A stretch of DNA of 47,912 nt from a virus. A program made the translations under genes and the position numbers. Of this stretch, positions 9,302 to 27,265 are shown one piece after another. Position 1 is the first letter of the stretch, and every line of letters starts with the position of its first letter. Location: IMG/VR virus record IMGVR_UViG_3300050026_000188. The stretch is one strand, 5' to 3'. The notes beneath the pieces are model-generated. The model saw nothing but the letters and a program-made list of their open reading frames with translations, searched no databases and was not told the origin of the DNA.

Positions 9302-9640
9302 ATGGCAAAGATTGTTATTGGCTGCAGGCTTCCAAACGGGTTGGTTTTGACTCACCCGATCAGCGGAGAGAGCGTGACTCTCGCGGGCTTGCATAGCTCG
9401 AAGATCATCGGCTCAACCCACGTATCAACCGAAGTCGATGCCGATTTCTGGGAAGCGTGGAAAGCAAAGTACAAGGATTTTACGCCGCTCAAGACTGGCG
9501 CGATCTTTGAGGCTCGCAACGAGACGGAAGCAATCTCGAAGGCGAAAGAACTCCGCAAGGAAAAAACAGGCTTCGAGCCGATGGCGACAGACGGCAAAGA
9601 TCCCAGGGCGAGCGGCGTAAAGAAAGCCGACGCAAAGTAA
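9302..9640 (+). CDS. Hypothetical head-module protein
   Basis: ORF with ATG at 9302 (MAKIVIG...); no recognised motif. Confidence 0.3.
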   Translation: MAKIVIGCRLPNGLVLTHPISGESVTLAGLHSSKIIGSTHVSTEVDADFWEAWKAKYKDFTPLKTGAIFEARNETEAISKAKELRKEKTGFEPMATDGKDPRASGVKKADAK

Positions 9641-9746
9641 CAATGAGCGAGAAGCGGCCTACGAAACGGACTCTTCCCCCGCAAGTCGGAGGAGTGCGAA
9701 TCAAGGCTAAACCTAACTTGGATTATTACGACGGGAGAAAATAACA

Positions 9747-9980
9747 ATGAGCGTCCGCGGGAAGTTTATGGTAAGTTCCGTCACGAACCTGAGTGCGACA
9801 AGCACTTACGTCAATGTGAAGTTGAGAGCGGTATACAGCAATAGCCCCGAAGACAATAGCTATTCGGCGGCAACACCGAGCGGAAGTATTGAGATGACCA
9901 TCACCAACCCGGCGGCGGTTGAGCAGCTACCAATCGGCGCACAATTTTACGTTGACTTCACCGCCGTAACCGAAGGGTAA
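9747..9980 (+). CDS. Small hypothetical structural protein
   Basis: 77-aa ORF with GGGAGA upstream; position in the head-tail joining block. Confidence 0.3.
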   Translation: MSVRGKFMVSSVTNLSATSTYVNVKLRAVYSNSPEDNSYSAATPSGSIEMTITNPAAVEQLPIGAQFYVDFTAVTEG

Positions 9981-9982
9981 CG

Positions 9983-10411
9983 ATGGCCGTTGCAGTCTTC
10001 AACTTGGCGAACTTCCAAGCTCGATATCCGCAGTTCAATGCCGTGAGTCCAACCAGGCTTGCGGCATTGTTCGTGGAAGCGGGCTTGTATCTATCCAACA
10101 CGGACTGCAGCCCCATTCAGGACTTGGGGAGACGCGGGATGCTGCTCAACATGCTTGTGGCGCACATCTCTTCTCTCTCAGGCGATCTCAGCGCAGACGG
10201 ACAGGCTCAGCCAGTGGGGAGAGTAAGCCAGGCGGCAGAGGGGACCGTATCCGCGAGCTTTGAGGGCGTACCGCCCACGCCGGGCACGGGCGCATGGTTC
10301 CAACAAACCCAATACGGCGCGGCCTTCTGGCAAGCTACGGCGAGCCTACGGGGTATGCGTTATCGTTCCCGCCCAACCGATCCCAACCAGGGGCGGCGCT
10401 GGGGGTATTAG
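9983..10411 (+). CDS. Head-tail adaptor-like protein (DUF4054-like)
   Basis: Size and position; N-terminal MAVAVFNLANFQARYPQF resembles DUF4054 proteins. Confidence 0.35.
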   Translation: MAVAVFNLANFQARYPQFNAVSPTRLAALFVEAGLYLSNTDCSPIQDLGRRGMLLNMLVAHISSLSGDLSADGQAQPVGRVSQAAEGTVSASFEGVPPTPGTGAWFQQTQYGAAFWQATASLRGMRYRSRPTDPNQGRRWGY

Positions 10412-11564: not shown

Positions 11565-12079
11565 TGCCCGCGCCTATACCCTTTCTGGCTTCGATCAGCA
11601 TTGACGCCGTAATCGAAGCCCTGGGCGCATTCCTGCAGCCATTCGTAGGAGCCGCACAGATCATCCGCGCCCAGGTGAATCGCGTTGCTCCGCCGGCCGC
11701 GCCTTACGTGGAACTCACCGAAATTCTGCAGGTACCGCTAGAGACTCCGATTGACGTAGACAACGGAGCCAACGCGCAAACGGACATTACCGGACCAAAG
11801 CGGATCGATATTCAAATTGACTTCCGCGGTCCCGCTTCGGGCGACTGGTGTACAGCCGTAACAACTATTTACCGGAGTCCTTACGCGCCGGCTCAATTTC
11901 CCGATGGCATAAAACCGTTGTATTGTTCGGACGGTCATCAGATGCCGCTTACCACGGGTGAGCAACAATACGAAACCCGTTGGACGCTTACGGCGAGCTT
12001 GCAGTACAATCCGACTGTAAGTATTCCGCAACAGTCCGCTAATACTTTGGCGGTAAATATTATGGAGGCTTCGCAATAA
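11564..12079 (+). CDS. Hypothetical structural protein (possible tail terminator)
   Basis: ATG at 11564 (MPAPIPFLASI...); immediately upstream of the sheath gene. Confidence 0.3.
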   Translation: MPAPIPFLASISIDAVIEALGAFLQPFVGAAQIIRAQVNRVAPPAAPYVELTEILQVPLETPIDVDNGANAQTDITGPKRIDIQIDFRGPASGDWCTAVTTIYRSPYAPAQFPDGIKPLYCSDGHQMPLTTGEQQYETRWTLTASLQYNPTVSIPQQSANTLAVNIMEASQ

Positions 12080-13602
12080 TGACTATTCCCGCGTCTCGAA
12101 TTGCAAGAGTAAACCCCGGCGTTGTGAATAGCGGCGGAACGTCGCTGGTGATGAATGGGCTCTTCCTCACTCAAAATACCGCGATGCCCACGGCTTCGGC
12201 TTTCAACTTCGCGAGCCCCACGGCGGTAGCAAATTTCTTCGGTCCAGCATCCGCCGAAGCCGCCCTAGCAAAGATCTATTTCGCCGGCTACAGCAATTCC
12301 ACGATCAAGCCTGGCGGGATGATCTTCGCTCCCTTCAATCTTGCCGCTCGCTCCGCCTTCCTGCAGAGCGGATCGCTCGCCGGATTGAGCCTGGCACAGC
12401 TTGAAGTGCTGAGCGGTACGCTCATCCTCACCGTTGCCGGCGTGGTAGAGACTTCGGCCGCGATTGATCTGTCTACCGCCGGCAGTTTCAGCGGCGCGGC
12501 TACTCTCATTCAAGCCGGTTTCACAACTCCCCCCTTCACCGTTGCGTGGAATCCCGTTACCAGTGCGTTCGTGATCACCACCACGGCAACCGGCGCAACG
12601 GAGACGATCACTTTCGCAAGCGGGACGCTCGCCGCCGGGCTCAATCTGACTCAGGCAACCGGCGCGATTCTCTCGCAGGGAGCCGCGCTCGATACGCCGG
12701 CTACCGCAATGGCGAACGCCGTGCGCGTGACGCAGAACTTCGCGAGCGTTGTAACGCTATGGGAGCCGACTCTCAGCGATAAGGAAGGCTTCGCGGCCTG
12801 GTTCAATGCGGCCAACCTTGAATATCTGTATCTCGGTTGGGATTCCGATCCGAACGCATCGGTACTCGGAAATACAACCTGTTTCGGCGCGGTAACGAAG
12901 GCCGCTCAGTGGAACGGCGTTGCGTGCATCTCCGGAGATCCGGCGTTAGCTCTCGCGAGCGGCACCACTCTCGCCGCGCTCGCGCTCAACGTCGCTACGT
13001 TCGTGGCCGGCGCGATTGCTTCGATCAACTCCGGCGCAACCAACGGGCGCGTTACTCTCGCCTTCCTTGCTCAGTCGGGGATGGCTCCCACGGTTGCAGA
13101 CGATCAGATCTCTCAGAATTTGCTCGCGAACGGTTACAGCTTCTACGGATCGTATGCGACGGCGAATGATGGCTTCGTTTTCTTCTACAACGGGCAGATG
13201 CCGGGCGAGTTCGGTTTCATCGATTCCTTCGTCAATCAGATTTACCTCAACGCACAATTTCAGTTGGCGATGCTCACGTTGCTTACCAACATCGGAGACT
13301 TCCCCTATACCCCATCCGGTTACGGGTTGCTTCGTTCGGCGCTGATGGACCCTATCAATGCGGCGCTTGCTTTCGGAACGATTCGCACGGGAGTTACTCT
13401 TTCGGCCGCGCAGATCTCCGAAGTCAACCTGGCCGCCGGCGTTGACGCTGCAAGCGTGATTCAGACGGCCGGCTACTACCTGCAGATCCTTGACCCTGGC
13501 GCTCAGGTTCGCGGGCTCCGCGGCAGCCCTATCGTCAACTTCTGGTATAGCGACGGCGGCGCGGTCCAATTTATCAACATGGCAAGCATTGACATTCTGT
13601 AA
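12079..13602 (+). CDS. Tail sheath protein (DUF3383-like)
   Basis: 507-aa ORF followed by a tube-like gene, then chaperone with frameshift and tape measure: the contractile-tail order. Confidence 0.65.
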   Translation: MTIPASRIARVNPGVVNSGGTSLVMNGLFLTQNTAMPTASAFNFASPTAVANFFGPASAEAALAKIYFAGYSNSTIKPGGMIFAPFNLAARSAFLQSGSLAGLSLAQLEVLSGTLILTVAGVVETSAAIDLSTAGSFSGAATLIQAGFTTPPFTVAWNPVTSAFVITTTATGATETITFASGTLAAGLNLTQATGAILSQGAALDTPATAMANAVRVTQNFASVVTLWEPTLSDKEGFAAWFNAANLEYLYLGWDSDPNASVLGNTTCFGAVTKAAQWNGVACISGDPALALASGTTLAALALNVATFVAGAIASINSGATNGRVTLAFLAQSGMAPTVADDQISQNLLANGYSFYGSYATANDGFVFFYNGQMPGEFGFIDSFVNQIYLNAQFQLAMLTLLTNIGDFPYTPSGYGLLRSALMDPINAALAFGTIRTGVTLSAAQISEVNLAAGVDAASVIQTAGYYLQILDPGAQVRGLRGSPIVNFWYSDGGAVQFINMASIDIL

Positions 13603-13911
13603 CTGAAAGAGGGCAGCATTTTGGACACTTCGATCAATGCGGCGCTCGCCTTCGGAGCCATTCGCACGGGCGTTACGCTTTCGGATGAGCAGATCTCCGA
13701 AGTCAACCAGGCCGCCGGCGTAGACGCTGCAAGCGTGATTCAGACGGCCGGCAACTACCTGCAGATCCTTGACCCTGGCGCTCAGGTTCGCGGGCTCCGC
13801 GGCAGCCCTATCGTCAACCTCTGGTACGCCGATGGTGACGCGGTCCAAACCATAACGATGGCAAGCATCGACATTCTGTAACTGAAAGAGGGCAGCATTT
13901 TGGACACTTCG
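13354..13911 (+). repeat. Tandem duplication, two 279-bp units (13354..13632 and 13633..13911), about 90% identical
   Basis: Base-by-base alignment: about 25 substitutions in the 249 coding nt, none in the 30 nt of stop + AGAGGG + TTG start region. Confidence 0.85.
13621..13881 (+). CDS. Free-standing paralogue of the sheath C-terminal domain (86 aa)
   Basis: Begins with the same AGAGGG-TTG-GAC-ACT-TCG as the tube gene, then encodes a diverged copy of the last 83 aa of the sheath. Confidence 0.4.
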   Translation: MDTSINAALAFGAIRTGVTLSDEQISEVNQAAGVDAASVIQTAGNYLQILDPGAQVRGLRGSPIVNLWYADGDAVQTITMASIDIL

Positions 13912-14334
13912 ATAACCTCAGCAAATTCCGTATTCACGATCTCTGTCCCCGGCTTGTTTCCTATCCCTCAGCAGTTGAAGGGATACTCCGCAGAGAAGGC
14001 TTGGAGCAGCGATAACCTCGACCTGGCAGAGACTCAGATGGGCGTAGATGGCCGCTTGACCGCCGGCTATACCCCGATGGCTGTAAAGCAGACGATCAGC
14101 CTGCAGGCCGACTCCCCGAGTAAGCAGATCTTCAAAACCATTCAGGCCGCGACTCGGGCGGCGCGGGATGTGTATTACATAAACGGCACGATTGATCTGC
14201 CGTCCACGGGTGAATCCTTCATCGGTACCCGCGGCGTGCTGCAGGCAGTGAAGCCCCTTCCGGACGCCGGCAAGGTTTTGCAGCCGATGGAGTTTGCAAT
14301 TGTGTGGGAGAGTCTGGTGCCCACTCTCCTGTAA
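13900..14334 (+). CDS. Tail tube protein (DUF3277-like)
   Basis: About 145 aa directly after the sheath; TTG start with AGAGGG upstream; YINGTIDLP region. Confidence 0.65.
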   Translation: MDTSITSANSVFTISVPGLFPIPQQLKGYSAEKAWSSDNLDLAETQMGVDGRLTAGYTPMAVKQTISLQADSPSKQIFKTIQAATRAARDVYYINGTIDLPSTGESFIGTRGVLQAVKPLPDAGKVLQPMEFAIVWESLVPTLL

Positions 14335-14370
14335 ATATGACAGAAGAAACGATGGGGGTTTAGGTAACTA

Positions 14371-14832
14371 ATGAATTACAGCAAAAATGCGCCGGCCTTC
14401 GCAGCATCGTTTGAGGGGTACTCGCCCGTTTCGGTGCATCATCCGGAAGATCCCCCGGACGTATGGACAATGGGATTTGGCTCAACATATTGGAGCGGCG
14501 CGAAGGTAACTGAGGGTATGACGTGTACCCGCGATGAAGCGCTCTTGCAGTTGGCGGGCGGCCTTGAGAGTGCGGCGCGATGCGTCAATCTCTCGCTGCA
14601 TGTGACCGTAACCCAGGACGAGTTTGACGCTTGCACGGATCTTACTTACAACATCGGCTGCTCGCGCTGGCAGGAATCCACCGCGAGGGAGCGGCTCAAC
14701 GCTGGGGATTACGCTGGCGCAGCATCAGCCTTCGAGATGTGGGATCGTGCGGGCGGCGTAGTGATGGCAGGATTGCTCCGACGCCGGAAGGCTGAGGAAG
14801 TTCTATTTGATACGCAGGGAGTATCGGCATGA
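14371..14832 (+). CDS. Lysozyme, glycoside hydrolase family 24 (T4/P22-type muramidase)
   Basis: FEG...D...WTMGFGST catalytic block (Glu/Asp/Thr) and C-terminal NIG...LNAGDY...W...GG...GLLRRRKAEEVLF pattern. Confidence 0.8.
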   Translation: MNYSKNAPAFAASFEGYSPVSVHHPEDPPDVWTMGFGSTYWSGAKVTEGMTCTRDEALLQLAGGLESAARCVNLSLHVTVTQDEFDACTDLTYNIGCSRWQESTARERLNAGDYAGAASAFEMWDRAGGVVMAGLLRRRKAEEVLFDTQGVSA

Positions 14833-15296
14833 GAAAGACGGCGAGTTATACAGTCACGCAAGAGGGCCGCGATCTCGGCAAGCGCTTCCTCATAACTGAG
14901 ATGGGCGCAGCGCAGGGGGAGTCGTGGGCGGCGCGGGCTCTGCTCGCACTGATGGCGAATAACGCGGAGATCCCCGAAAACTTTGCAGAGCTCGGAATGG
15001 CCGGGCTTGCTGAGTTGGGACTCAGGGCGCTGAGTAGTCTTCGCTGGGAAGTCCTCTCCCCCTTGCTTGAGGAAATGATGGCCTGCGTTCAAATCATTCC
15101 CGATGCCAAAAAGACTCAGGTTGTGCGTTCACTCATTGAGGACGATATCGAAGAGATTGCAACGCGGCTCAGTCTGCGTTTGGAGTGGTGGGAGTTGCAT
15201 ATGGGTTTTTTGCAAGCCGTCGCCCCCTCAATCTTAGGACACGGGCCGGCGGCGAAGGACGCCCCCCGGCGAGCTACAGCAACGTCCCGAAGATAA
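14829..15296 (+). CDS. Tail assembly chaperone (gpG-like); -1 frameshift predicted to extend it to 15418
   Basis: Position between tube/lysozyme and tape measure; overlapping -1-frame ORF 15185..15418; slippery heptamer in the overlap. Confidence 0.45.
   Translation: MRKTASYTVTQEGRDLGKRFLITEMGAAQGESWAARALLALMANNAEIPENFAELGMAGLAELGLRALSSLRWEVLSPLLEEMMACVQIIPDAKKTQVVRSLIEDDIEEIATRLSLRLEWWELHMGFLQAVAPSILGHGPAAKDAPRRATATSRR
15203..15209 (+). other. Programmed -1 ribosomal frameshift site, heptamer G GGT TTT
   Basis: Zero-frame codons ATG GGT TTT TTG; the -1 frame reads GGG TTT TTT and stays open to 15418. Confidence 0.5.
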
Positions 15297-15493
15297 TTGG
15301 GATACTGATCTCCCGGCGCATGGCGACGCTGCATGAGTTACAGACTTGCTATGGAGTGGAAGACGCTCACAACATGTTGGAAGTGGTGATTGTAGACGAT
15401 GCCAACAGACAGACATAAACTCGATCTCCAACGCGAACGATACGCCAATATGACTTCTGAAGAAAAGGTAGCTTGGCGTGAGAGGGCGTCCGG

Positions 15494-17275
15494 ATGCCTA
15501 CAATCATAGATTCTTTAGTAGTCAGCCTAGGCCTCGACTCCAAAGACTTGGATGCGAAGAGCGGCTCTGCGGGCAAGAAGCTAAAAGAAGTTGAGGGGCA
15601 ATCTGCAAAGACTGAGGGCGGCGTAAGGAAGATCGGCGTCGCCAGCAAAGAGGCGGCGGTCGGAGTCGGCGGGCTAACCCGCACGCTGGGGAGCTTCCTC
15701 GCGCTCATCGCCGGAACGATGGCGATCAAGGCGTTTGCATCCGACTTCATCGATGCCAACGCCGCATTGCTACGACTCTCTCAGAATCTCGGTCTAGGCG
15801 TCTCAACTATCTCAGCGTGGGGGAAAGCCTCCGAAGAGCTCGGCGGGAGCGCGGCGGGGCTGCAGGGCACGCTAGACATGCTCTCAATGTCGCAGACGGA
15901 GCTTCGTCTAACCGGGCAATCCTCTCTGATCCCCTATTTCTCAGCGCTCGGGGTATCGCTCGCCGACGTGAACGGCAAGGCGCGGCCGGTTGACGCAATT
16001 CTTTTGGATCTCGCAGATCGCTTCTCTCGTATGGACCGGACAACCGCAAACAACATGGGCCGGATGATGGGGATCGATCAAGGGACCATGAACCTGCTTT
16101 TGCAGGGGCGCAAAGAGCTTGAGCTAACGATCAAGCGCCAGAAGGAAAGTACGGCGGTCACGCAGAAGCAGGCCGAAGCCGCCCAGAAGCTACAGACTCA
16201 GATTGTGGAGACGAAGCAAAAGTTTACGGCGCTTGGGAATGCGCTGATGCTTGAGGCAGCGCCGGCGCTTGAGAGACTCGCTGATCTCTTCCTTCGCCTG
16301 GGCAACTGGGTACTCGACAATGAGGAACTCGTAACGGACTTCCTGAAGGTGATGGCGGTCGGGCTGGGAGCAATCGCGCTCATAACTGCCCCGATCAATC
16401 TCGCAGTGGTTGCCGTACTCGCGCTCGCCGCTGGCATCGCGCTGCTCTGGCAGGACTATCAGGTATGGAAGCGCGGCGGTACATCCTTTATCGACTGGGC
16501 GAAGTGGGAGCCTGAGATTAGGATGGCTACGAAGGCCATCACTCTTCTAGGCGACGCCATAGCGCGAGTGATCGGGCTCAAGAGCCAGCCTGCAAACAAT
16601 CACGCCCCAGGCTCGGGGTACACCCAACTCAAGGACAACGCCCCCGCGGGCTGGGCGAGTCCGGGCGGCGGTGAGCCCGGGGGCGCGGCCACTGGTGAGC
16701 AGATCAAAAAGTATTTCGAGGGGCAAGGATGGAGTTCCGCTCAGGCCGCCGGCATTGCTGCAAACTTTATGCGCGAGAGTGTCGGCCGAACTAAGGCACC
16801 GGGGGACGGCGGTCACGCATACGGTTTAGGGCAGTGGCACTCAGACCGGCAAGCCAACTTTGCGAAATTTGCCGGGCACAGTATCAAGTCATCTACTCTC
16901 CCTGAGCAATTGGCTTTTGCTCAGTACGAACTTACTCACGGTGAGAAGAGGGCGGGAGATGCGCTCCGCGGGGCGACTAACGCAGGGCAGGCCGGCGCGA
17001 TTGTGTCACGGATGTATGAGCGGCCGGCAGACGCAGACGGCGAAGCGAGACTGCGCTCATCTCTCGCTCTGGCGCTCGCGGGCGTCGGCGGGGCAACCGG
17101 CGCAATCGCGGCGGCGAGCCCCACGCCGGCGGGCTCTGGCGTGTCTTCGAGCGATAGCAGCGTTACAAACCATATCGGAGAGATCAAGGTTTACACGGCT
17201 GCCACTGATGCGAACGGCATCGCTCGGGGCATGAACTTCCTCTTCACCAGCCAGGCTAATGCGGGGCTCAACTAA
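15494..17275 (+). CDS. Tape measure protein with C-terminal lysozyme-like domain
   Basis: Long helical, Ala/Leu/Gln-rich protein with a hydrophobic segment (VMAVGLGAIALITAPINLAVVAVLALAAGIALLW); C-terminal GIAANFMRESVGRT...HAYGLGQW...R block resembling phage tail lysozyme domains. Confidence 0.8.
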   Translation: MPTIIDSLVVSLGLDSKDLDAKSGSAGKKLKEVEGQSAKTEGGVRKIGVASKEAAVGVGGLTRTLGSFLALIAGTMAIKAFASDFIDANAALLRLSQNLGLGVSTISAWGKASEELGGSAAGLQGTLDMLSMSQTELRLTGQSSLIPYFSALGVSLADVNGKARPVDAILLDLADRFSRMDRTTANNMGRMMGIDQGTMNLLLQGRKELELTIKRQKESTAVTQKQAEAAQKLQTQIVETKQKFTALGNALMLEAAPALERLADLFLRLGNWVLDNEELVTDFLKVMAVGLGAIALITAPINLAVVAVLALAAGIALLWQDYQVWKRGGTSFIDWAKWEPEIRMATKAITLLGDAIARVIGLKSQPANNHAPGSGYTQLKDNAPAGWASPGGGEPGGAATGEQIKKYFEGQGWSSAQAAGIAANFMRESVGRTKAPGDGGHAYGLGQWHSDRQANFAKFAGHSIKSSTLPEQLAFAQYELTHGEKRAGDALRGATNAGQAGAIVSRMYERPADADGEARLRSSLALALAGVGGATGAIAAASPTPAGSGVSSSDSSVTNHIGEIKVYTAATDANGIARGMNFLFTSQANAGLN

Positions 17276-18027
17276 TGCCGCCGGCAACAAACATTCCGTA
17301 CCCCAACGTTCCCGCGGTCCCGGGCGTGCCCCAGCTATTGCGTCAGGTGGGCGCGGTTGCGCCGATACCCGTTGTGACAATCGGGATCGGCGCTCTCGAA
17401 AACATCCTGGGCGCGGCGCTGCAACAGGCTCCGCAGTGGGGCATCTTCGACGCAGCCGGCAACCAGGTTGGCATCAGCCCCAACAGTTCTGCAACGCTCC
17501 TGGCAGCCATCGGTAACGCTGCACTGAGCCTGCTCTCGGGCGCGAGTGCGGTCCTCTCCACTTTTGGATTCGATTATATGAAAGAGATGGTAGTGAGCGA
17601 TTTCCCCGTTGAAGGGGGATCGTTCGCCAGCTACAACAAAGTAGAGAAGCCGGGCAACCCCGTGGTGACTCTAGCGCTCGCCGGTAGCGTGAGTGACCGG
17701 ACAACGTTTCTCAACGCTATCGATGCTGCTACCAAATCAATCAACGCCTATAGCGTCGTGACGCCCGAGATCACCTATTCCAATTACACTCTTGAGCGCT
17801 ATCGCTATCAGCGGCGAGCGGAGCGGGGCGCGACGCTGCTTATGGTCGAAGTGTCGCTCAAGCAAGTTCGGGGCGTGGTAGCTGCATTTACTACCGTGAC
17901 TGTCACTCCTATCGTCAATCCCCAAGATCCCGGCGCTACGTCTCAAGTGAGTAACGGACCTACGCAACCGATAGCGCCGCCGACTTCTACGTTTAAGTCA
18001 CTTGCAAATAAACTGGGGCTCCACTGA
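17275..18027 (+). CDS. Tail/baseplate protein, unassigned
   Basis: First ORF after the tape measure; start overlaps its stop. Confidence 0.35.
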   Translation: MPPATNIPYPNVPAVPGVPQLLRQVGAVAPIPVVTIGIGALENILGAALQQAPQWGIFDAAGNQVGISPNSSATLLAAIGNAALSLLSGASAVLSTFGFDYMKEMVVSDFPVEGGSFASYNKVEKPGNPVVTLALAGSVSDRTTFLNAIDAATKSINAYSVVTPEITYSNYTLERYRYQRRAERGATLLMVEVSLKQVRGVVAAFTTVTVTPIVNPQDPGATSQVSNGPTQPIAPPTSTFKSLANKLGLH

Positions 18028-18350
18028 TGCCCCAACAAATATCTACTCAACCCGTTCCCTCTCAGATATTGCAAGTGACACTTGCTGGGCAAAGTTGCCA
18101 GATCGCCATCTATCAGAAGACGCAAGGGCTCTTCGTGGATCTCAACGTAAACGGCATTGATATCTCTATAGCCGTGATCGCGCATGATGTTGTACCACTG
18201 GTTCCTACCGGTTATCTTGGATTTGTGGGGCAACTGATATTTACGGACACTCAGGGGGGTAACGATCCGACTTATGACGGGCTCGGGAGCCGCTATCAAC
18301 TCGTCTACCTGACACCGGCGGAGGTTGCGAGTGTTCAACTTCAATTCTGA
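18027..18350 (+). CDS. Small tail/baseplate protein
   Basis: 107-aa ORF, start overlaps upstream stop. Confidence 0.3.
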   Translation: MPQQISTQPVPSQILQVTLAGQSCQIAIYQKTQGLFVDLNVNGIDISIAVIAHDVVPLVPTGYLGFVGQLIFTDTQGGNDPTYDGLGSRYQLVYLTPAEVASVQLQF

Positions 18351-18488
18351 CGCCGGTTAGCAGCCCGATAATCCTAAATGCTATTCTGGTAAAGAAGAAC
18401 CGCTTAGAGCTTTCATCGGGCGCGGGCACGAGGGTAATCATGGTTTTTATTATGGAGAATTGTTGACTGTACTGTCAATAGCTAAATT

Positions 18489-19406
18489 ATGATCGGTTCC
18501 TTCCAAAATAAAAAAGAGCTTCGCTTCGTCATCACGCTCGCGACGGGGAGCTTCGGCTCAAGCTCTGCTAACCAGGTAACTCTTGAGGGGCTTCGTGCCA
18601 CTGCCGAAATTGACAAAGGCGGCGGCCAGATGAACGCCACTCTTTGCGCTCAAATTTACGGCGTGGCTCAAAGTGACATGAATGCGGTAACAACCCCGTG
18701 GGGACCACGCTATATCAATCGTAATACGATTTTGGTTTATGCCATCGACGGAGCGCAGGAGACGCTAGTATTTGCGGGAGAGATTGTAAACGCCTGGGGC
18801 AACTATCAGCAGATGCCTGATGTCTTCCTACAAATACAGGCTCAAGCTGGCGTGATCAATCAGCTTCAACCTATCCCTCCCACTAGCTACAAAGGCACCG
18901 TGGATGTTGCCACTCTGATGGCTCAACTCGCGGCAACGATGGGATACAAGTTTGAGAATAACGGCGTAAGCGTCCCGCTCGTAAATCCCTACGTGGCAAA
19001 CACCGGAATCGAGCAAGTAAAGTCTCTAGCGAAGCAGGCGGGAATAGGATGGGGACTTGATAACGGTGTACTCTTCATAGCGCCAGCAGATACGCCACGC
19101 GGGAGCTTGATCCCCCTGATCTCCTCTCAAACTGGGATGATCGGATACCCGACGTATGACAATCATGGGATCAATATCAGAACTCTTTTCAATCCGGCTA
19201 TCGTCTACCACGGGGCGTTCAAGGTAATCAGTTCGGTGCCGCGCCCGATGGGATCTCTCGATACTCAAGGCGCTGCTCTCGCGCCCAGTCTAATCGGACA
19301 ATGGGTAGCATTTTCAATCGCTCACAGTCTTTCGAGCGAGAAGCCGGGCGGCCCCTGGTGGAGCACAGTGAGAGGAAACCCCAGTGGCTTCGCAATCTCC
19401 AATTAG
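18489..19406 (+). CDS. Baseplate hub-like protein
   Basis: About 305 aa ORF just upstream of the spike-like gene. Confidence 0.4.
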   Translation: MIGSFQNKKELRFVITLATGSFGSSSANQVTLEGLRATAEIDKGGGQMNATLCAQIYGVAQSDMNAVTTPWGPRYINRNTILVYAIDGAQETLVFAGEIVNAWGNYQQMPDVFLQIQAQAGVINQLQPIPPTSYKGTVDVATLMAQLAATMGYKFENNGVSVPLVNPYVANTGIEQVKSLAKQAGIGWGLDNGVLFIAPADTPRGSLIPLISSQTGMIGYPTYDNHGINIRTLFNPAIVYHGAFKVISSVPRPMGSLDTQGAALAPSLIGQWVAFSIAHSLSSEKPGGPWWSTVRGNPSGFAISN

Positions 19407-20163
19407 TCTCGGTACTCTTTGGCCCTCTAGCACCTGGGGAGAGTACAACAACATCGTTTTTGCTATCCAAGCTGCCCTCGCCAAAATGCAAACCGGGACG
19501 CTGGTACGAATAGAGGCTTGCACAAACGCGGGTGATCTCTCGCCGGTTGGCTTCGTGGATGTAACGCCGCTGGTGAATCAAATTGACGGCTCAGTGCCCG
19601 CCAACCCGACGCCGCACGTTACGATTTACGGACTCCCCTATCTGCGAATGCAGGGCGGAACTAACGCCGTGATCTTGGACCCTCAGCCCGGCGATATCGG
19701 CGTGGCCGTCTTCGCCAGTCGCGATATAAGCAAGGTGAAGAGCACGAAGGCTCAGGCCAACCCAGGCAGCTACCGGCAGTATGATTTCTCGGACGGCATG
19801 TATCTGGGCGGAATGCTCAACGCCGTGCCCGTGCAATACGTTCGCTTTGGAACTGACGGGATAACCATCGTTTCCCCGACTGCGATCACGCTCACGGCTC
19901 CCACAATCACGCTAGGCGGCGCTGTAACTGTTGAGGGGGCGCTTACTCAGAGCGGCGGCGACGTGAGCATTACCGCCCCCGACACAATTACTCTGGCAGC
20001 CCCCGAGATCAACCTAGATGGCGCGTTGGCGTCAACCGGCGGCAATGCTACGATGAGCGGGGAGCTTACAACTACCGGCGATGTAATTGCCGGCGGCAAG
20101 AGCCTCAAAACTCACGTCCACACTAGCGAAGCCGTGGGGACGCAAACGAGCCCGCCTCTATGA
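19384..20163 (+). CDS. Baseplate central spike (gpV-like)
   Basis: C-terminal beta-helix-like repeats (ITIVSPTAITLTAPTITLGG, ITLAAPEINLDGA) and terminal GKSLKTHVHT. Confidence 0.55.
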   Translation: MASQSPISLGTLWPSSTWGEYNNIVFAIQAALAKMQTGTLVRIEACTNAGDLSPVGFVDVTPLVNQIDGSVPANPTPHVTIYGLPYLRMQGGTNAVILDPQPGDIGVAVFASRDISKVKSTKAQANPGSYRQYDFSDGMYLGGMLNAVPVQYVRFGTDGITIVSPTAITLTAPTITLGGAVTVEGALTQSGGDVSITAPDTITLAAPEINLDGALASTGGNATMSGELTTTGDVIAGGKSLKTHVHTSEAVGTQTSPPL

Positions 20164-20510
20164 ATACGCTTTTGCTTGACACCGAGCAGTGGGATTTAGT
20201 TTTGGACGCATCGGGGAATATCGCGATGGCGACGCCCCCGTATGCTCTGGCTCAGGACGTAGCAAGCGCGGTCAAAACGTTTCTCGGAGAGCTTTGGTAT
20301 GACACGACTCAGGGCATTCCCTATTTCTCTGAAGTCCTGGGGAAGCTGCCGCCGGCGGCGCTGCTCACTCAGCTTATAAGCGATCAGGCTCTAACCGTGC
20401 CGGGCGTTGTTACCGCAGAGTGCTCGATTACTTCCTTCAATGCTCGGGGCGTCTCGGGGCAAATCAACTTTACAGATGACACGGGGGAAACAACCATTGT
20501 CAATTTCTAA
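20160..20510 (+). CDS. Small baseplate protein (Mu gp46 / gpW-like)
   Basis: About 116 aa; position between spike and the J-like gene. Confidence 0.45.
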   Translation: MNTLLLDTEQWDLVLDASGNIAMATPPYALAQDVASAVKTFLGELWYDTTQGIPYFSEVLGKLPPAALLTQLISDQALTVPGVVTAECSITSFNARGVSGQINFTDDTGETTIVNF

Positions 20511-20522
20511 GGGAGCAATCTA

Positions 20523-21767
20523 ATGGGACTTCCCCCCGGCATTCCGAGCACGCAGGTACCTCAGATCCAATTTACGCCGCAAGGCCCGATCATCCCCGAG
20601 GATGGGGACATTCTCGCAGGTGTGCAGATCGATATGAATTACGCTTTCGGGGGCGGGCTCAATCCCGGCCTGACTACTCCGCAAGGGCAGCTTGCGTCGA
20701 GTACGGCGGCGATCATCTCCGACAAGGATGCGGAGATCGCTCTCATCTGCAATCAGGTTGATCCTCAGTACGCAACGGGGCGCTTTCAGGATGCCATCGG
20801 ACGTTTGACAGTTGGAATGGCTCCGCGCTTCCAAGCGGCAGGTACTGCGGTTGCTTGTATCCTCACCGGCCCAGGGGGAGTAGTACCAGCCGGAACTCTC
20901 GCGCGAGATACATCGGGCAACACTTATGCTTTGCTCGGGGCGGTCACAATACCCGGTACGGGCTCGGTTATGAGTTCATGGCAGAATCTTGCGACTGGTC
21001 CGATCCCTTGCCCTGCCGGAAGTCTCACGCAGGTATATCAGGCCGTCCCCGGTTGGGATGCAATTTCCAATCCAGCAGATGGCGTATTGGGCCGCGACGT
21101 TGAGACGCCTCAAGAGTTTGAGCTACGCCGCCAGAACTCAGTTGCAGGTAACGCCCGCGGCTCTGTGCAGGCGATTCAGGCCGGCGTCTTCGACAACGCG
21201 CCGAACGTGCTGGATTGCTACGTGATCGACAACCCCACTGGGCTGACGGTCAATAAGGGATCTACCAACTATCCGATGCTCCCCCACTCGCTTTACGTGG
21301 CAGTGGTTGGCGGGGTTGATGCCGATATCGCTAATGCTATCTGGCCCAAGAAAGACACGGGTTGCGACTACAACGGAAATACCTCAGTGACGGTTTTCGA
21401 TATGAGCCCTCAGTATGCCCCCGGTCCATATCCCTCTTACGCAGTGAAGTTCAACCGTCCTACGAGTACCCCCGTGCTCTTCGCAGTGTCAATCGTCAAC
21501 TCCCCGACGCTGCCGGCCGATATCGTAACCCTGATTCAAAACGCTATCATTGCTCAATTCAACGGGGGCAACGGGCAGATCCCCGCTCGCATCGGCGCTG
21601 CGATCACCGGCTCTAGCTATTACGGCGCGGTCATCGGCGTAGCGCCTGGCATCACGGTGCTGAGCGTCCTTGTTGGAGTCGCCACGCCAACTCTGCCTCA
21701 GGTCGTCATGGGTATCGATCAGTCCCCCGTGATCAGCGCGGGCGACATTACGGTTAGCCTCATATGA
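20523..21767 (+). CDS. Baseplate wedge protein (Baseplate J-like)
   Basis: About 414 aa in the conserved position after the gpW-like gene. Confidence 0.65.
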   Translation: MGLPPGIPSTQVPQIQFTPQGPIIPEDGDILAGVQIDMNYAFGGGLNPGLTTPQGQLASSTAAIISDKDAEIALICNQVDPQYATGRFQDAIGRLTVGMAPRFQAAGTAVACILTGPGGVVPAGTLARDTSGNTYALLGAVTIPGTGSVMSSWQNLATGPIPCPAGSLTQVYQAVPGWDAISNPADGVLGRDVETPQEFELRRQNSVAGNARGSVQAIQAGVFDNAPNVLDCYVIDNPTGLTVNKGSTNYPMLPHSLYVAVVGGVDADIANAIWPKKDTGCDYNGNTSVTVFDMSPQYAPGPYPSYAVKFNRPTSTPVLFAVSIVNSPTLPADIVTLIQNAIIAQFNGGNGQIPARIGAAITGSSYYGAVIGVAPGITVLSVLVGVATPTLPQVVMGIDQSPVISAGDITVSLI

Positions 21768-22336
21768 AAAATATAGAGCAAACCATCATTTCGCAGTACG
21801 GCAATAGCCCAGCTCTCACCGCGCTCATTCGTAACATGAACGAGTACATCCGGGTGGATGCTGATATCGACGGATTCTTCGACACGATTTGGAATGTGGA
21901 AACCGCCGTGGGCTTAGGGCTAGATATCTGGGGCAGCATCGTCGGCCTTCCGACCGGCCGCTATATCTACACCGAGCCAGTCACGGTGTTGAATGACGAT
22001 CAGTTTCGCACCCTCATTCTCATCAAAGCTCTGAGCAACATCTCGATTACAAGTTCCCCCAGCTTCAATCAAATGCTGAATATCTTCTTTGCTGGGCGCG
22101 GGCGCTGCTACGTGAGTGATCAGGGCTCCATGCAGATGCGGTATACCTTCGAGTTCCCACTGGAGCCTTGGGAGATTCAAGTTATTTCGGAGCCTGACAT
22201 CTTACTTAGGCCGGCTGGAGTGGGTGTTACACTCGCCATAATCGATTACCCGGTGTTTGGATTCTCCGAAGCAAATAGCCCCAAGTTTACGGGATTCAAT
22301 CAGGCACCCTTTGTTTCGGAGGCGATAGTAATCTAA
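21764..22336 (+). CDS. Baseplate/tail protein (gpI-like)
   Basis: About 190 aa following the J-like gene, start overlaps its stop. Confidence 0.45.
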   Translation: MKNIEQTIISQYGNSPALTALIRNMNEYIRVDADIDGFFDTIWNVETAVGLGLDIWGSIVGLPTGRYIYTEPVTVLNDDQFRTLILIKALSNISITSSPSFNQMLNIFFAGRGRCYVSDQGSMQMRYTFEFPLEPWEIQVISEPDILLRPAGVGVTLAIIDYPVFGFSEANSPKFTGFNQAPFVSEAIVI

Positions 22337-23148
22337 TGCTCTTAGCCAGCGCACCATCAAAAGTAGTTGAAGCTTTCGCAGCCGGGGGCGGCAAGAATGT
22401 AATCCCAGTGCCTTCGCAGATTGGCATTACTCCCGGCGCGGCATCATGGACTGACGGATTCCCACCACTCACTCGTACTGATCCGATTGCTGGTGGTGTA
22501 GGCCCGAGCGGTCTGGATATGAATGGGGCACTCAATGCCATCTCAGCTCTGTCCATCTGGTACAACGCTGGTGCTGGCTTCCCCTACGATGCCGTATTCT
22601 CTGCGACCGTTGGCGGCTACCCAGCGGGGGCGCGAGTCCTGCAGGCGAGCGGCGCGGGCTACTGGCGGAGTACGGTCGATAACAACGTGACCGATCCGGA
22701 CACCGGCGGCGCGGGCTGGGTACCGGAGGGCGCGAGCGTGCTATCAAGCGTCTACGCTTCTGCTCAGCAAACGCTCGCCCTGGGAACCTCGAAGATCCTC
22801 TTCGATACCGTCGAGTTCGATGACGGACTCTGGGATGTGACCGATCATCGCTTCGTTGCCCCCTACGCCGGCCGGTATCGAGTGGCCGGCTCTGTGATGC
22901 TCGCCGCCCCTGACGGGCAGCTTCTAGCGACTCAGATCTTCAAGAATGGAGCTATCGCAAAACAATGCTTTCAGGCTCCCCAGGTGAGCGACGGAAATAT
23001 GAGCTTGCCCTTTGATGCCGTGCTCAACCTGGCGGCCGGCGATTACCTCGAAGCATTCCTTGTAGCGCCAGGCGCGGCCGTGCTCGCCGGGCAGGTTGGG
23101 AGCAATCAGGCATATGTATTTGCTCAGGCTGAATATCTCGGCACATAA
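22336..23148 (+). CDS. Tail fibre protein with C1q/TNF-like C-terminal domain
   Basis: N-terminal PSQIGITPGAASWTDGFPPL fibre-type motif; C-terminal FDTVEFDDGLWDV...YAGRYRVAGSVML...LAAGDYLEAFL jelly-roll-like pattern. Confidence 0.6.
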   Translation: MLLASAPSKVVEAFAAGGGKNVIPVPSQIGITPGAASWTDGFPPLTRTDPIAGGVGPSGLDMNGALNAISALSIWYNAGAGFPYDAVFSATVGGYPAGARVLQASGAGYWRSTVDNNVTDPDTGGAGWVPEGASVLSSVYASAQQTLALGTSKILFDTVEFDDGLWDVTDHRFVAPYAGRYRVAGSVMLAAPDGQLLATQIFKNGAIAKQCFQAPQVSDGNMSLPFDAVLNLAAGDYLEAFLVAPGAAVLAGQVGSNQAYVFAQAEYLGT

Positions 23149-23156
23149 TTAGAGGT

Positions 23157-23420
23157 ATGGCTCAGGCCCCTGGGGAAATAATGACTCATAGTAGCGAAGT
23201 AGTCGATGCGGCCGATCTCGCCGTAAAGAAGGTTTTCTATTTGCTTGGGGTAGACGTTGACAACGCCGCTAGTATCGAAAGTTTCCGCGAAGATCTCCGC
23301 TTTGGCCGTAGGCTTCGTAAGCTCGCTAATAGTGGCGTGGCGGGGATCGTGGGACTACTGGCGTTGGGTTTAGTAACCGCGCTCTATAGCGGCATCCTCA
23401 ATTCGCTCAAAGGAAGGTAG
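23157..23420 (+). CDS. Small membrane protein (holin/antiholin candidate)
   Basis: One C-terminal hydrophobic helix (GVAGIVGLLALGLVTALYSGIL). Confidence 0.3.
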   Translation: MAQAPGEIMTHSSEVVDAADLAVKKVFYLLGVDVDNAASIESFREDLRFGRRLRKLANSGVAGIVGLLALGLVTALYSGILNSLKGR

Positions 23421-23425
23421 CCCCA

Positions 23426-23671
23426 ATGCTCGACAAACTTCCTTCGCCGTTCTGGGCGGTAATACTGGCAGGCATGGGAGCCGGGCTCGCGCTCGCATCT
23501 CTCTTTCATCCGACTCCCGAGAATATCGCGCTCGCAGTCCTGGGCGTTGGCTCCAACCTGGTGAGCGGAGCCCTGGGCGCGTTCGCCGGCCACGCTCAGG
23601 CGTCGGCGCAAAAAGCCGATGTGACAACTCCTGACGCCCGCGTTACTATCGGCTCAGACGACCAAAAATAA
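23426..23671 (+). CDS. Two-helix membrane protein (holin candidate)
   Basis: Two hydrophobic segments (FWAVILAGMGAGLALASLF; IALAVLGVGSNLVSGALGAFAG) and a charged C-terminus. Confidence 0.35.
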   Translation: MLDKLPSPFWAVILAGMGAGLALASLFHPTPENIALAVLGVGSNLVSGALGAFAGHAQASAQKADVTTPDARVTIGSDDQK

Positions 23672-23697
23672 CGGTTGCCACTCGGAGAATAATAATT

Positions 23698-24090
23698 ATG
23701 ACTGTTACCTCAGTGCTTGACGATGTAAAAGGCTGGTTCGCGAAGGTTTTCAAGAATGCACCTTCCGCCGAAGTTACGGCCCTCTCTGCCCTCAATACCG
23801 TTGCCCCCGAAGCGGAGATCTTGCTTGATCTGATCGATCCGGCCGCTGGCGCAATCGCAACCCCGATCATTACCGAAGTGCAGGCTGATCTCGGTACCGT
23901 CGCGAACCTGCTCAAGTCGGGCAATACCGTCAATCTCGGTACCTTCCTGGCTGCGATCAAGAGCAATTTGAGCCTACTGCTCACCGAGGGCCATATCACG
24001 GACCCGGCAAGCGTCACGAAGGCGACGGGGATCGTTGGCGCGATCTCTGGCGTTATTACCAGCCTGCAGAATCAGTACGCAACGGCGTAA
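23698..24090 (+). CDS. Hypothetical protein
   Basis: 130-aa ORF with AGGAGA-type RBS region. Confidence 0.25.
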   Translation: MTVTSVLDDVKGWFAKVFKNAPSAEVTALSALNTVAPEAEILLDLIDPAAGAIATPIITEVQADLGTVANLLKSGNTVNLGTFLAAIKSNLSLLLTEGHITDPASVTKATGIVGAISGVITSLQNQYATA

Positions 24091-24791
24091 TGAGCTATCA
24101 GTCTGAGTTTCGAGCAACGGCCGTCGCTCTCGCGGCGGTCTTTTGCTTGGGCTCTATCGGTTATCGCGTCCTGACCGCCCCCGAGATCCCCGATCTCGCG
24201 CCCACGGTTACAAAGCTCAACGCAACCATTACCGCGGCGTCTACGGCGCTGCAGGGGCTTCCGGCCGTTCTGACGCACGTTCAAACTACCAGCGACGCGG
24301 CTACGGGCGTCCTACGCTCAGCATCGCCCGTTGTGGCGAGCTTTGCGGGGACCGCCGGCAAGCTCAACGATACAATCGATCTCACATCCCATCGGCTAAA
24401 CGATCTCTGCCCGCTCCCCCCCGACGTAAGGCCGTGCGGAACGCTCGCCGACACTAACCGCACCCTGGCGACGTTGCGGGGCACATCAGGGCAGGTAGAG
24501 CGTTCGCTCATCCTCTTCAACCAGCATGAGGGGGATCTCTTCACTCAGGAGAGCGCCGCTTACGCTGGGATGAATAAATCAGTCTTGGATTTTGACGCGC
24601 TGGTATCCGATCCGGATCTCAAGGCGAACATCCACAACTCAGCGATTATTACCGGGAATTTTGCGGCCATATCGACCGAAGGAAAAGACTGGCTCCATCT
24701 GAGGCTCTATCCGACAAAGAAAAAGGGGTTTGTGTCGGGCTTTGAGGCAACTGGGGACGCAGCGAAACATTGGATGCCGCCCCTCTTTTAG
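24090..24791 (+). CDS. Membrane-anchored hypothetical protein
   Basis: N-terminal hydrophobic anchor (AVALAAVFCLGSIGY) followed by a soluble domain; no recognised motif. Confidence 0.3.
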   Translation: MSYQSEFRATAVALAAVFCLGSIGYRVLTAPEIPDLAPTVTKLNATITAASTALQGLPAVLTHVQTTSDAATGVLRSASPVVASFAGTAGKLNDTIDLTSHRLNDLCPLPPDVRPCGTLADTNRTLATLRGTSGQVERSLILFNQHEGDLFTQESAAYAGMNKSVLDFDALVSDPDLKANIHNSAIITGNFAAISTEGKDWLHLRLYPTKKKGFVSGFEATGDAAKHWMPPLF

Positions 24792-25041
24792 GGCACTCGG
24801 GGCGCTCTTCGTCGGCATCCCATATCAGGCCGCAAGTATCACAAACGATCTGATCAAGTTGCCGGCGAGCTTTACAGTTTGGCAGGTTCAAAGCTGGTAT
24901 CCCCCTCACGTTCTAAATAACTAGGCTCAAAACTCTCATCTTCCCATTCCGCATACGTCTGCCCAGTCACATCTAAGAACGCTCGCCAGGCAGCCTCTTC
25001 GCGTGCGTATTTTTGCTTGAGGTACCAATATTGGCGATTGC

Positions 25042-25290
25042 TCACTGTTTGAACGAACTACCCGTCTCACTGCCGTCAACCGTGGCGTCGGCGACAACCC
25101 ATACAACAACGCCGCCCGGCTTAGTCACCCGGTATAACTCGCGGGCGAGAGCTTCAAAATTCCAAGAAAATCCCTTGTATTCGCGGAGGTTGTCATACGG
25201 AGGGGACGTAACTGTTAGCTGTACACTCTCGCTCGCTACAAGGCAACTGAGAGCCATCACGTTATCGCAGTTATATAGTTGCATAGCCAA
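25042..25290 (-). pseudogene. Truncated beta-class N6/N4 DNA methyltransferase (N-terminal fragment only)
   Basis: 82 aa carrying motif IV (TSPPY) and the following YRVTKPGGVVVWV block, then a stop; no downstream FxGxG motif; start overlaps the polymerase stop. Confidence 0.5.
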
Positions 25291-27265
25291 TGTCCCTCAA
25301 TATCGCGTGGCAATTGTCGAGATACCAGGCGTAGTCAATGTCATCCGGCAGTGAGTCCGGCAGAGTCAGGCAGGGCTTAGCGCCGTAGCTGAGGCTTACG
25401 GTGTTGCCGTTAGTGTTGTAGATGATTGAGCCGGGCGCGGATGTCGAGTAGTAGAATCTGATCACTTTGCCCATATACTCGGGCCGTTGCGGGGTGAAGC
25501 AAGATGCGTAAGCGCTCCCCGCATCCGCCAGCACGCCCGCCCGCTGCCATTTACGGCCGCTCTTCACCCATCCGTTAGCCTGCAGAGTGGCCGTCATATC
25601 GCGTATCTTTGTGCCCTTGAGCGGTCCCTCGCCCCAGAGCTTCACAGCGCCGCCGGCAACCTTGCGGACTGTCACAAATTTGCGGATATCCCGGCTCGCG
25701 GCGAGCGTATAAAGGATCGGCGTCCCCTTGCTGAGATATTCGGCCACGGCATCTGAGCAGATCTCCACATCGGGATTCTTCTTTTCGACCAGGCCGGCCT
25801 TTGAGTATTCCCCTTTGCGCTTTACCTTCCCGTCGATCTTCACTGCAAAGTAATTATTTACGTCTTTGGAATAAATGGCCTTGTAAGTATTGCTTTCCAT
25901 CTCCAAACCCGTGCTCCGCTCCCACTCTTCGATGAGCCGATCGCTCGAAGCGAGCAGATGGCGCGGGCAAAATGCCACAAACCCGTCAGTATTCGCAGAC
26001 ACAACAGGGATGCCGTTCGATTCATGCCACTCAATCAGCATCATGAGCGCAAGTTGCCCGGTGATGGTGGTTTGAATGAGCATCTCAGGGGCGAAAAGGA
26101 TGGAGAACGGGCTCCCAGTCTTCCCGAAAACGCCGTTGATCATAATCTTGCCGCCCTCGTTCTCTACCTCAGCCTTCGTGTATTCGGGAGTTCCTTTAGT
26201 AAGTGTTTTCTGTAGAGCCTTCGCCTTCAGACGCTCATCTTTGATCGCTGCATACTCATGCAGGAACGCGGGGCCGAGAGCCTTCGGATATTTTCCGGAG
26301 TTCAAGATCAGACTGGGATAGTAGCTGGCAACATCCGAATCCCTGAGTACAGCGTTTTCGTCGCTTCGGTACGCCACGCGCTTCTCGGAGGAGTGCAGGC
26401 CGCCGATCCCGAGCCGGTAGCGCGACGAGCCGATTTGGATCTCAAGTCCGTCTAGCTGGGCGGGCATGACGACGGAGCCACTCGGGCCAAGCCGGAATAC
26501 GGCCTCTCTGACCAGGGAGAACGCCTGCATGAGAGGTGCCGTCTGAAATTTGAGGAAGGATGGCGGCTCGTATTTGAAGACCAGATTCCAGTCAATCTCA
26601 GGCTTATAAATCTTCTGACCTAGAGCCTGCTCACAGCGGCGCTTTAGAACGGCTTCGGCAAGCTGAGCATCTGACTTACTTCGCAGATCAATCCCGTAGC
26701 GCTTGCTCAACTCCTGGCGCTGGTGGAGTTGGGGCGCGAGTGCATCGAATAGCCCCTCTAGGACTGAGAGATCATTTCCGCAATAGTCGTCTACTTCGGC
26801 GATCTCCGCAGGCGTGAGGTATTGATCCGGCGAGTAGGGAAGATCTCGCATCGTCTTGCAGTGGATTCGACCTGCGTACTGCTTTTGGCTGCCCGCGCCT
26901 GGCGCTACTTCCATCACATCGATGTGATCAGCCGGCCGCCACTCGGGGAGCCCTAACTCCCAGGGCTTTAGCTTCTGGACAATGATTTGATCATTGAGCC
27001 ATTTGAGTTGATCTGGGGTATAGCCCGAGAGCGCCGCGGCGATCATCGGTACATCGTAGTAATTGCCGTTGAAGCTCACGGTTGTAAAGATCTGGAATAG
27101 CGTGGTGATGCTCGCAACCGCCGCGGGCTCTAACCTCTCGCCCGCCCTCAGCGCGAACGTAAAGCATTCGCCGCCCTGAGGACGGAACTTGAGAAGCCAA
27201 AAGTTAGGAAAACATTCTGTGTCGTAAAATGCTACCGGCTTACCTGATGGTGGAGTGGGGATCAT
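25271..27265 (-). CDS. DNA polymerase, family B, with 3'-5' exonuclease
   Basis: Exo motifs FYDTE, NGNYYD, YCGND; Pol motif A DVASYYPSLI, motif B KIMINGVFGKTG, motif C variant SANTDG. Confidence 0.75.
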   Translation of the reverse strand: MIPTPPSGKPVAFYDTECFPNFWLLKFRPQGGECFTFALRAGERLEPAAVASITTLFQIFTTVSFNGNYYDVPMIAAALSGYTPDQLKWLNDQIIVQKLKPWELGLPEWRPADHIDVMEVAPGAGSQKQYAGRIHCKTMRDLPYSPDQYLTPAEIAEVDDYCGNDLSVLEGLFDALAPQLHQRQELSKRYGIDLRSKSDAQLAEAVLKRRCEQALGQKIYKPEIDWNLVFKYEPPSFLKFQTAPLMQAFSLVREAVFRLGPSGSVVMPAQLDGLEIQIGSSRYRLGIGGLHSSEKRVAYRSDENAVLRDSDVASYYPSLILNSGKYPKALGPAFLHEYAAIKDERLKAKALQKTLTKGTPEYTKAEVENEGGKIMINGVFGKTGSPFSILFAPEMLIQTTITGQLALMMLIEWHESNGIPVVSANTDGFVAFCPRHLLASSDRLIEEWERSTGLEMESNTYKAIYSKDVNNYFAVKIDGKVKRKGEYSKAGLVEKKNPDVEICSDAVAEYLSKGTPILYTLAASRDIRKFVTVRKVAGGAVKLWGEGPLKGTKIRDMTATLQANGWVKSGRKWQRAGVLADAGSAYASCFTPQRPEYMGKVIRFYYSTSAPGSIIYNTNGNTVSLSYGAKPCLTLPDSLPDDIDYAWYLDNCHAILRDIGYATI

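Follow-up and report, generated by a model that had tools for sequence, protein, structure and literature searches.

A GH24 lysozyme gene flanked by tail tube and chaperone genes of an uncultivated myophage as its probable endolysin gene

The window analysed here is a whole stretch of 47,912 nucleotides (nt) from the IMG/VR virus record IMGVR_UViG_3300050026_000188, or 47.9 kb of sequence from a contig no longer than 49.1 kb. It covers the greater part of the genome of an uncultivated myophage (a phage with a contractile tail) whose tail is of the E217/AP22 type. Within a long plus-strand run of myophage head and tail genes it encodes a free-standing GH24 lysozyme, whose gene has the tail tube gene on one side and the tail assembly chaperone gene on the other, as well as a tape measure protein with a lysozyme-like domain of its own (Table 1). 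We consider it probable, at about 0.65, that the GH24 protein is the endolysin of this phage, encoded apart from the rest of the lysis cassette and expressed from the late tail operon, and that the tape measure domain is an entry enzyme. This reading is favored because the GH24 protein is the only free-standing wall hydrolase found and has no virion-anchoring domain, because an entry enzyme is already present in the tape measure protein, and because cultured phages with related tails (AP22, Orisa03 and phiE067) keep their lysis genes together. It is favored as well because distant homologues of the GH24 protein are encoded in or near lysis-type gene clusters, and because two genes that follow the tail fibre gene of the window, p130 and p233, form a pair that elsewhere lies beside a wall enzyme gene.

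The GH24 protein matches PF00959 Phage_lysozyme with E=6.1e-34 and 117.5 bits (cut-off 22.3), over residues 13-142 and profile positions 2-125 of 125, and the PHROG family phrog_7, 'endolysin', with E=9e-38; the motif-based GH24 assignment of an earlier reading made from the letters alone (the sequence-only reading) thus passed the profile search. The closest solved relatives are the PDB lysozyme chains 6et6 and 9kbq (E ~1e-29), which we take to be Acinetobacter phage or prophage enzymes, the search output itself naming no organism. The protein is a single domain of 153 amino acids (aa) without any extra domain, a size typical of endolysins, and its N-terminus, MNYSKNAPAFAASFEGY, contains no hydrophobic stretch, hence the protein has the character of a soluble one with neither signal peptide nor signal-anchor-release segment. 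In an alignment of 16 sequences including T4 lysozyme, E15 (T4 E11) and T33 (T4 T26) are invariant. The clade to which the GH24 protein belongs carries a three-residue insertion (HHPEDP), by which the column of the canonical Asp (T4 D20, eight residues past the Glu) is occupied by His24; D27 is invariant within the clade and keeps the D-x5-T spacing. The catalytic set may accordingly be read as E15-x11-D27-x5-T33, in which case the insertion would have shifted the catalytic Asp relative to GH24 endolysins of the T4/P22 type.

The gene is tightly embedded among its neighbors, its stop codon overlapping the chaperone start as ATGA, and the position between tube and chaperone genes given by the sequence-only reading was borne out by the family matches of both flanking genes (Table 1). 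A promoter and terminator scan around the gene yielded nothing above shuffled expectation, so that nothing points to the gene being transcribed as a unit of its own. Its GC content is 0.58, that of the neighbors 0.57-0.60, and neither GC content nor GC content at third codon positions gives a sign of recent foreign origin. No holin gene adjoins it: the closest genes for small membrane proteins begin 8,325 nt downstream of its end, a separation that the sequence-only reading had recognised but had put at 9 kb instead of 8.3 kb. Pfam and/or PHROG scans, supplemented by Pfam calls already available for near-identical contigs, covered ~60 of the called open reading frames (ORFs) of the window and identified no other free-standing wall hydrolase.

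The same gene order recurs in other environmental contigs. Contigs in 52 blocks of the assembly collection encode an identical GH24 protein, its neighbors unchanged in all four of the places shown, and homologues at 61-88% identity constitute a large uncultivated family. In two contigs, L007 and L008, the GH24 gene (76% and 71% identical at the protein level, respectively) is again located between the tube and chaperone genes; the flanking tail proteins are 43-63% identical to those of the window, and GH24 is the best-conserved gene in the comparison with L007 and among the best conserved in that with L008. Since identity is low in the tail proteins and high in GH24, sequence comparison indicates that the tube-GH24-chaperone arrangement is old and under purifying selection. 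Adjacent GH24 and chaperone genes were found in none of 50,697 deposited phage records (tblastn with a concatenated query), and a megablast search of positions 12000-25000 against 50,697 phage records gave no match, which argues that there is no close cultured relative. Judged by sheath identity (47.5%), Burkholderia phage vB_E177 is the nearest relative in culture, and its tube, chaperone and tape measure genes occur without an insert. A GH24 protein with 61% identity and the same HHPEDP insertion is encoded at 9531-10013 of another contig, L015, which also encodes a protein-primed DNA polymerase B; an adjoining ORF, in which a Walker-A motif was seen by eye, may encode a packaging ATPase. 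The presence of this gene in a contig with a protein-primed polymerase suggests that the GH24 subfamily has moved between unrelated phage types.

The lysozyme-like domain of the tape measure protein matches PF18013 Phage_lysozyme2 with E=7.9e-25 and 88.1 bits (cut-off 28.2), and its boundaries (Table 1) are close to the 'about 16680..17040' of the sequence-only reading. Given their E-values, chance is out of the question as the source of either this profile match or that of GH24. The motifs FMRES (containing E428) and GLGQW of the domain are kept in the tape measure proteins of L008 and of Burkholderia phage vB_E177, and from the E-S motif of lysozyme-like transglycosylases E428 would be the catalytic residue. 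A phmmer search of the tape measure C-terminus against PDB gave no match. In the tape measure proteins of L007 (11023-12756), Pseudomonas phage Orisa03 and AsaM-56 (loci L013 and L014), a different C-terminal module replaces the PF18013 domain, which indicates module swapping within the protein. The tape measure proteins of mycobacteriophage TM4, of T5 (Pb2) and of phiIPLA35 have been cited as having muralytic domains (PMC6116005). Like them, the window's tape measure protein has a wall hydrolase domain in its C-terminal part, with an expected role in entry, although its domain family differs from that of several of these examples and its activity is a predicted one. Virion lysins are mostly components or domains of larger structural proteins (PMC6116005), a description that applies to the tape measure domain only and not to GH24.

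Four small genes follow the tail fibre gene, and we refer to their products by length as p87, p81, p130 and p233. Wall-hydrolase families were found in none of them by Pfam and PHROG searches, and for the p130 and p233 families neither Pfam, nor PDB profile searches, nor fold searches with low-confidence models returned a hydrolase, the PDB profiles giving coiled-coil noise only. No hidden lysozyme thus came to light in the region 23157-24791, in agreement with the sequence-only reading, which had seen none beside the membrane-protein genes. The topology that emerges from hydropathy is one membrane segment in p87, two in p81 and an N-terminal one in p233. In p87 the segment is C-terminal (residues ~55-84) and is preceded by a basic stretch, which makes the protein a candidate holin or antiholin; p81, with two Gly/Ala-rich segments and a hydrophilic C-terminus, is a candidate holin of class II topology, and is 69% identical in L007. 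Neither protein matches a holin family in Pfam or PHROGs, and the topology of both fits a small membrane protein of the holin kind. The protein p130 (38 homologues) lacks a signal peptide and has E40, D64 and H99 as invariant residues in the alignment of its family; the AlphaFold2 model is all-helical, at a predicted local distance difference test score (pLDDT) of 56. A 152-aa protein of the contig L023 is homologous to p130 (hhalign 92%, E=5.5e-7). For p233 there are 47 homologues, two conserved cysteines and a membrane segment at residues 7-30; its AlphaFold2 model (pLDDT 64) has helices at 3-29, 37-105, 119-172 and 175-206, and its profile gives weak matches to coiled-coil and fusion proteins, with DUF948 in 6 of 29 members. 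The modelled architecture of p233, an N-terminal membrane segment followed by a helical and putatively periplasmic domain, resembles that of an inner-membrane spanin, and sequence homology to Rz was not found. Likewise, a six-frame scan of 23157-25172 for the lipobox of an outer-membrane spanin gave no candidate. The sole lipobox match nearby, at 25175-25354, was rejected as an outer-spanin lipoprotein for want of a hydrophobic signal region. Homology was detected neither between the p130 family and a 106-aa protein of L007 nor between the p233 family and a 234-aa protein of the contig L020, and these are positional analogues at best.

The genes p130 and p233 were found together in 11 of the 16 loci scanned, including other kinds of phage contigs, and homologues of three out of these four genes are met again in further phage contigs and in Acidobacteria-linked genome contigs. 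In five other loci a wall-active gene is located directly upstream of the p130/p233 pair or within ~1 kb of it (Table 1). From the wall enzyme genes beside the pair elsewhere, the post-fibre block of the window can be presumed to be a lysis cassette lacking its enzyme, and in the clade of the window it would behave as such a cassette with an empty enzyme slot. Two reference genomes match the pair, an Acidobacteriaceae metagenome-assembled genome and Acidobacteria bacterium AB60, which suggests Acidobacteria as the host phylum; in AB60 (L032), a p81-like protein of 70 aa could be seen by eye to precede the p130-like/p233-like region. A two-segment, p81-like membrane protein encoded ahead of the pair was also seen by eye in another locus, L033. 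One could speculate, and this is put forward tentatively, that p81, p130 and p233 are a previously undescribed lysis module of Acidobacteria phages, present in several phage types and combined with interchangeable wall enzymes (GH24, glucosaminidase-like or Tlde1), never with a recognisable Rz/Rz1 pair, in which p233, as a membrane-anchored coiled coil, and p130 replace spanins for outer-membrane disruption. If so, the module would work with any muralytic enzyme, and the enzyme gene would therefore be free to sit elsewhere, in this case in the tail operon.

Cultured phages with related tails show where such an enzyme gene is otherwise found. Acinetobacter phage AP22 has the same sheath type as the window, and a lysozyme-like domain is annotated in its tape measure protein; after the tail fibre genes come genes for two small proteins, predicted from hydropathy to be membrane proteins, and then a GH24 gene annotated as endolysin, whose product is 41% identical to that of the window. 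Both enzymes belong to PF00959, are similar in size, have the conserved Glu and Thr and lack a signal sequence. Whereas the AP22 gene comes after the fibre and membrane-protein genes, that of the window lies between tube and chaperone genes, 8.3 kb away from the membrane-protein genes. In Burkholderia phage phiE067, holin, lysin and two spanins are encoded consecutively, and the lysin has been shown by experiment to be lytic on spheroplasts (PMC7266877). In Pseudomonas phage Orisa03, the fibre gene is followed by membrane-protein genes, then a lysozyme gene, then the genes of the inner and the outer spanin, that is, by a cassette in the same post-fibre position as the block of the window and likewise with small membrane proteins first. 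The Orisa03 and phiE067 cassettes hold a lysozyme and annotated spanins of the Rz/Rz1 type, in contrast to the block of the window, which has neither of these and no lipoprotein gene, but p130 and p233 instead. More distant GH24 homologues (40-48% identity) are also encoded in or beside lysis-type gene clusters in other phages: one, in L018 (45% identical), is directly followed by a GTA_holin_3TM gene, and another, in L009 (48% identical), comes after a gene for a beta-helix, tailspike-like protein. Adjacency of endolysin and holin genes is not needed as such, since lysis genes are dispersed in T4 (e and t) and T7 (3.5 and 17.5), where the endolysin is encoded far from the holin. Unlike in the window, however, the lysozyme gene of these phages is not known to be embedded between tube and chaperone genes of the tail. 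Both hydrolase domains described here belong to well-known families, and dispersed lysis genes are already known; what is new is the conserved placement of a lysin between tube and chaperone in an environmental phage clade, and the companion p81/p130/p233 module without recognisable spanins.

With GH24 as the endolysin, lysis could proceed as follows. The enzyme, soluble and without a signal sequence, would build up in the cytoplasm, presumably late in infection, until p87 and/or p81, to which topology and gene neighborhood would assign the holin role, open the inner membrane. GH24 would then reach and cleave the peptidoglycan, and p130 and p233 would finish the disruption of the envelope, as their topology and neighborhood likewise suggest. 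The lysozyme-like domain of the tape measure protein would be a separate, virion-borne enzyme that opens the wall locally during DNA injection, so that the two hydrolases would have two roles, GH24 in exit and the tape measure domain in entry, and GH24 would presumably be absent from virions.

Several points weigh against this reading. The canonical catalytic Asp column of GH24 is taken by His24, and D27 has been assigned to the catalytic set by its spacing, which makes that assignment provisional. The gene is placed among tail genes and overlaps the chaperone start, and the gene of a tail-associated protein would look alike. L007 retains GH24 while its tape measure protein is without PF18013, which would also fit GH24 as the entry enzyme there. 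The label 'holin-like' given to p87 and p81 comes from their topology, and a cryptic enzyme in p130 would formally be compatible with a model as poor as the one obtained (pLDDT 56).

The sequence-only reading had left two alternatives, an endolysin encoded away from its holin-like partners or a second virion-associated hydrolase, of which the comparative evidence favors the first and disfavors the second. The second, in which GH24 would be produced along with the tail proteins, would reside within or upon the tail, for instance beside the tape measure protein in the tube lumen, and would aid wall penetration while the lysis enzyme has gone unrecognised, draws on the position of the gene between tube and chaperone, its ATGA overlap and the retention of this position in L007 and L008, and on the L007 tape measure protein, which is without PF18013. 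We nevertheless regard it as unlikely: a single-domain protein of 153 aa with nothing to anchor it to the virion contrasts with the usual virion lysins, which are parts of larger structural proteins (PMC6116005), and the genome would be left without a recognisable endolysin. Moreover, distant GH24 homologues appear in or beside lysis-type clusters, and homologous cassettes elsewhere include a GH24 gene. Another possibility, to which we likewise give little credence, is a dual role, with GH24 acting in lysis while part of its copies also become incorporated into particles, as has been reported for the small muramidase P15 of phage PRD1. Co-expression with tail assembly genes would ease such incorporation, and the 61%-identical GH24 of L015, whose contig also encodes a protein-primed DNA polymerase B and possibly a packaging ATPase, would be in line with it; against this, the tape measure protein already has a hydrolase domain. 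That the true endolysin is instead an unrecognised enzyme in the post-fibre block, where p130 is the sole soluble candidate, and that GH24 is a horizontally acquired accessory, seems very improbable: p130 has its invariant E40, D64 and H99, sits where relatives have a lysozyme and is modelled too poorly to rule out an enzyme fold, but it matches no hydrolase family or fold, its homologues in the five loci mentioned above coexist with a separate wall-active gene, which argues that p130 does not replace such an enzyme, and GH24 itself shows strong conservation and no compositional anomaly.

Table 1. Features of the window, with positions in the 47,912-nt stretch, and wall-active genes near p130/p233 pairs in other loci
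Feature	Position	Strand	Match or remark
Tail sheath gene, 507 aa	12079..13602	+	PF11863 DUF3383/E217_gp31_N, E=2e-106
Tail tube gene, 144 aa	13900..14334	+	PF22764 E217_Gp32, E=4e-23
Stand-alone GH24 lysozyme, proposed endolysin, 153 aa	14371..14832	+	PF00959, phrog_7, PDB lysozyme chains
Tail assembly chaperone, 155 aa	14829..15296	+	phrog_1932, E=7e-42
Tape measure protein, 593 aa	15494..17275	+	several PHROG tape-measure families including phrog_9570 and phrog_2276; directly after chaperone gene
Lysozyme-like domain in tape measure protein, residues 402-523	16697..17062	+	PF18013
Tail fibre gene, 270 aa, closing the structural genes ahead of the four small ones	22336..23148	+	phrog_12796, phrog_1396
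p87, 87 aa, small membrane protein	23157..23420	+	hydropathy; sole match phrog_6420 (function unknown)
p81, 81 aa, two membrane segments	23426..23671	+	hydropathy
p130, 130 aa, conserved helical protein	23698..24090	+	homologue family and model
p233, 233 aa, membrane-anchored helical protein	24090..24791	+	homologue family and model
L023, PF00959 gene by p130/p233 pair			Acidobacteriaceae genome contig; integrase gene ~400 bp downstream
L042, PF00959 gene by p130/p233 pair			
L041, PF00959 gene by p130/p233 pair			
L040, glucosaminidase-like gene by p130/p233 pair			28.3 bits, just below the 30.2 cut-off
L036, Tlde1-domain gene by p130/p233 pair			

The structural run, in which the tape measure gene is followed by baseplate genes and which closes with the tail fibre gene, shows further features. 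The sheath is 41-47% identical to the matching region in the genomes of Burkholderia, Pseudomonas and Aeromonas myophages, the annotation in Aeromonas phage vB_AsaM-56 being 'tail sheath'. A tandem duplication of 279 nt with 91% identity occupies 13354-13911; the duplicated unit reaches from the 3′ end of the sheath gene across the intergenic spacer into the first codons of the tube gene, and yields an 86-aa ORF (13621-13881) that matches the sheath C-terminus (phrog_205). The duplication is also present in the metagenome contigs L003 and L005, while in L004 the gap between sheath and tube is without a called 86-aa ORF and could not accommodate a second copy, so that the duplication represents either a polymorphism or a variant of the assembly. 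The chaperone gene contains a perfect -1 slippery heptamer, GGGTTTT, at 15203-15209 (residue G127), and the computed -1 frameshift product would span 14829-15418 and comprise ~196 aa. Burkholderia phage phiE067 has the identical heptamer at the same chaperone residue, G127 (PMC7266877).

Elsewhere in the window, the presumed large terminase gene is found at 1606-3099, its start overlapped by a homing-endonuclease-like ORF (962-1639, phrog_314). A small terminase-like gene (40436-41335; PF03592 Terminase_2 on near-identical contigs) is separated from it by several kb that include a giant fibre-like ORF. The latter, at 44232-47912 on the minus strand, encodes over 1220 aa with a high content of Gly, Thr, Ser and Ala, is still open at the window end and matches nothing in Pfam or PHROGs; its strand is the opposite of that of the structural module, and the other tail genes are a long way off. 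A 664-aa ORF without a Pfam match (25271-27265, minus strand) stands at the head of the replication module, near genes for a Gp2.5-like single-strand DNA-binding protein, an exonuclease, a helicase and a primase-polymerase.

Endolysin mining and annotation pipelines usually look beside the holin gene, and a lysin encoded in a tail operon, as GH24 probably is in this clade, could be taken by mistake for a tail lysozyme. Two wall enzymes are also told apart by role here, a free GH24 that would serve exit and a tape measure domain that would serve entry. The p81/p130/p233 module is the more promising lead, since it is Acidobacteria-linked, appears to accept different muralytic partners and comes without known spanins, and it may offer a tractable way to learn how the phages of a poorly studied phylum breach the envelope of their hosts.

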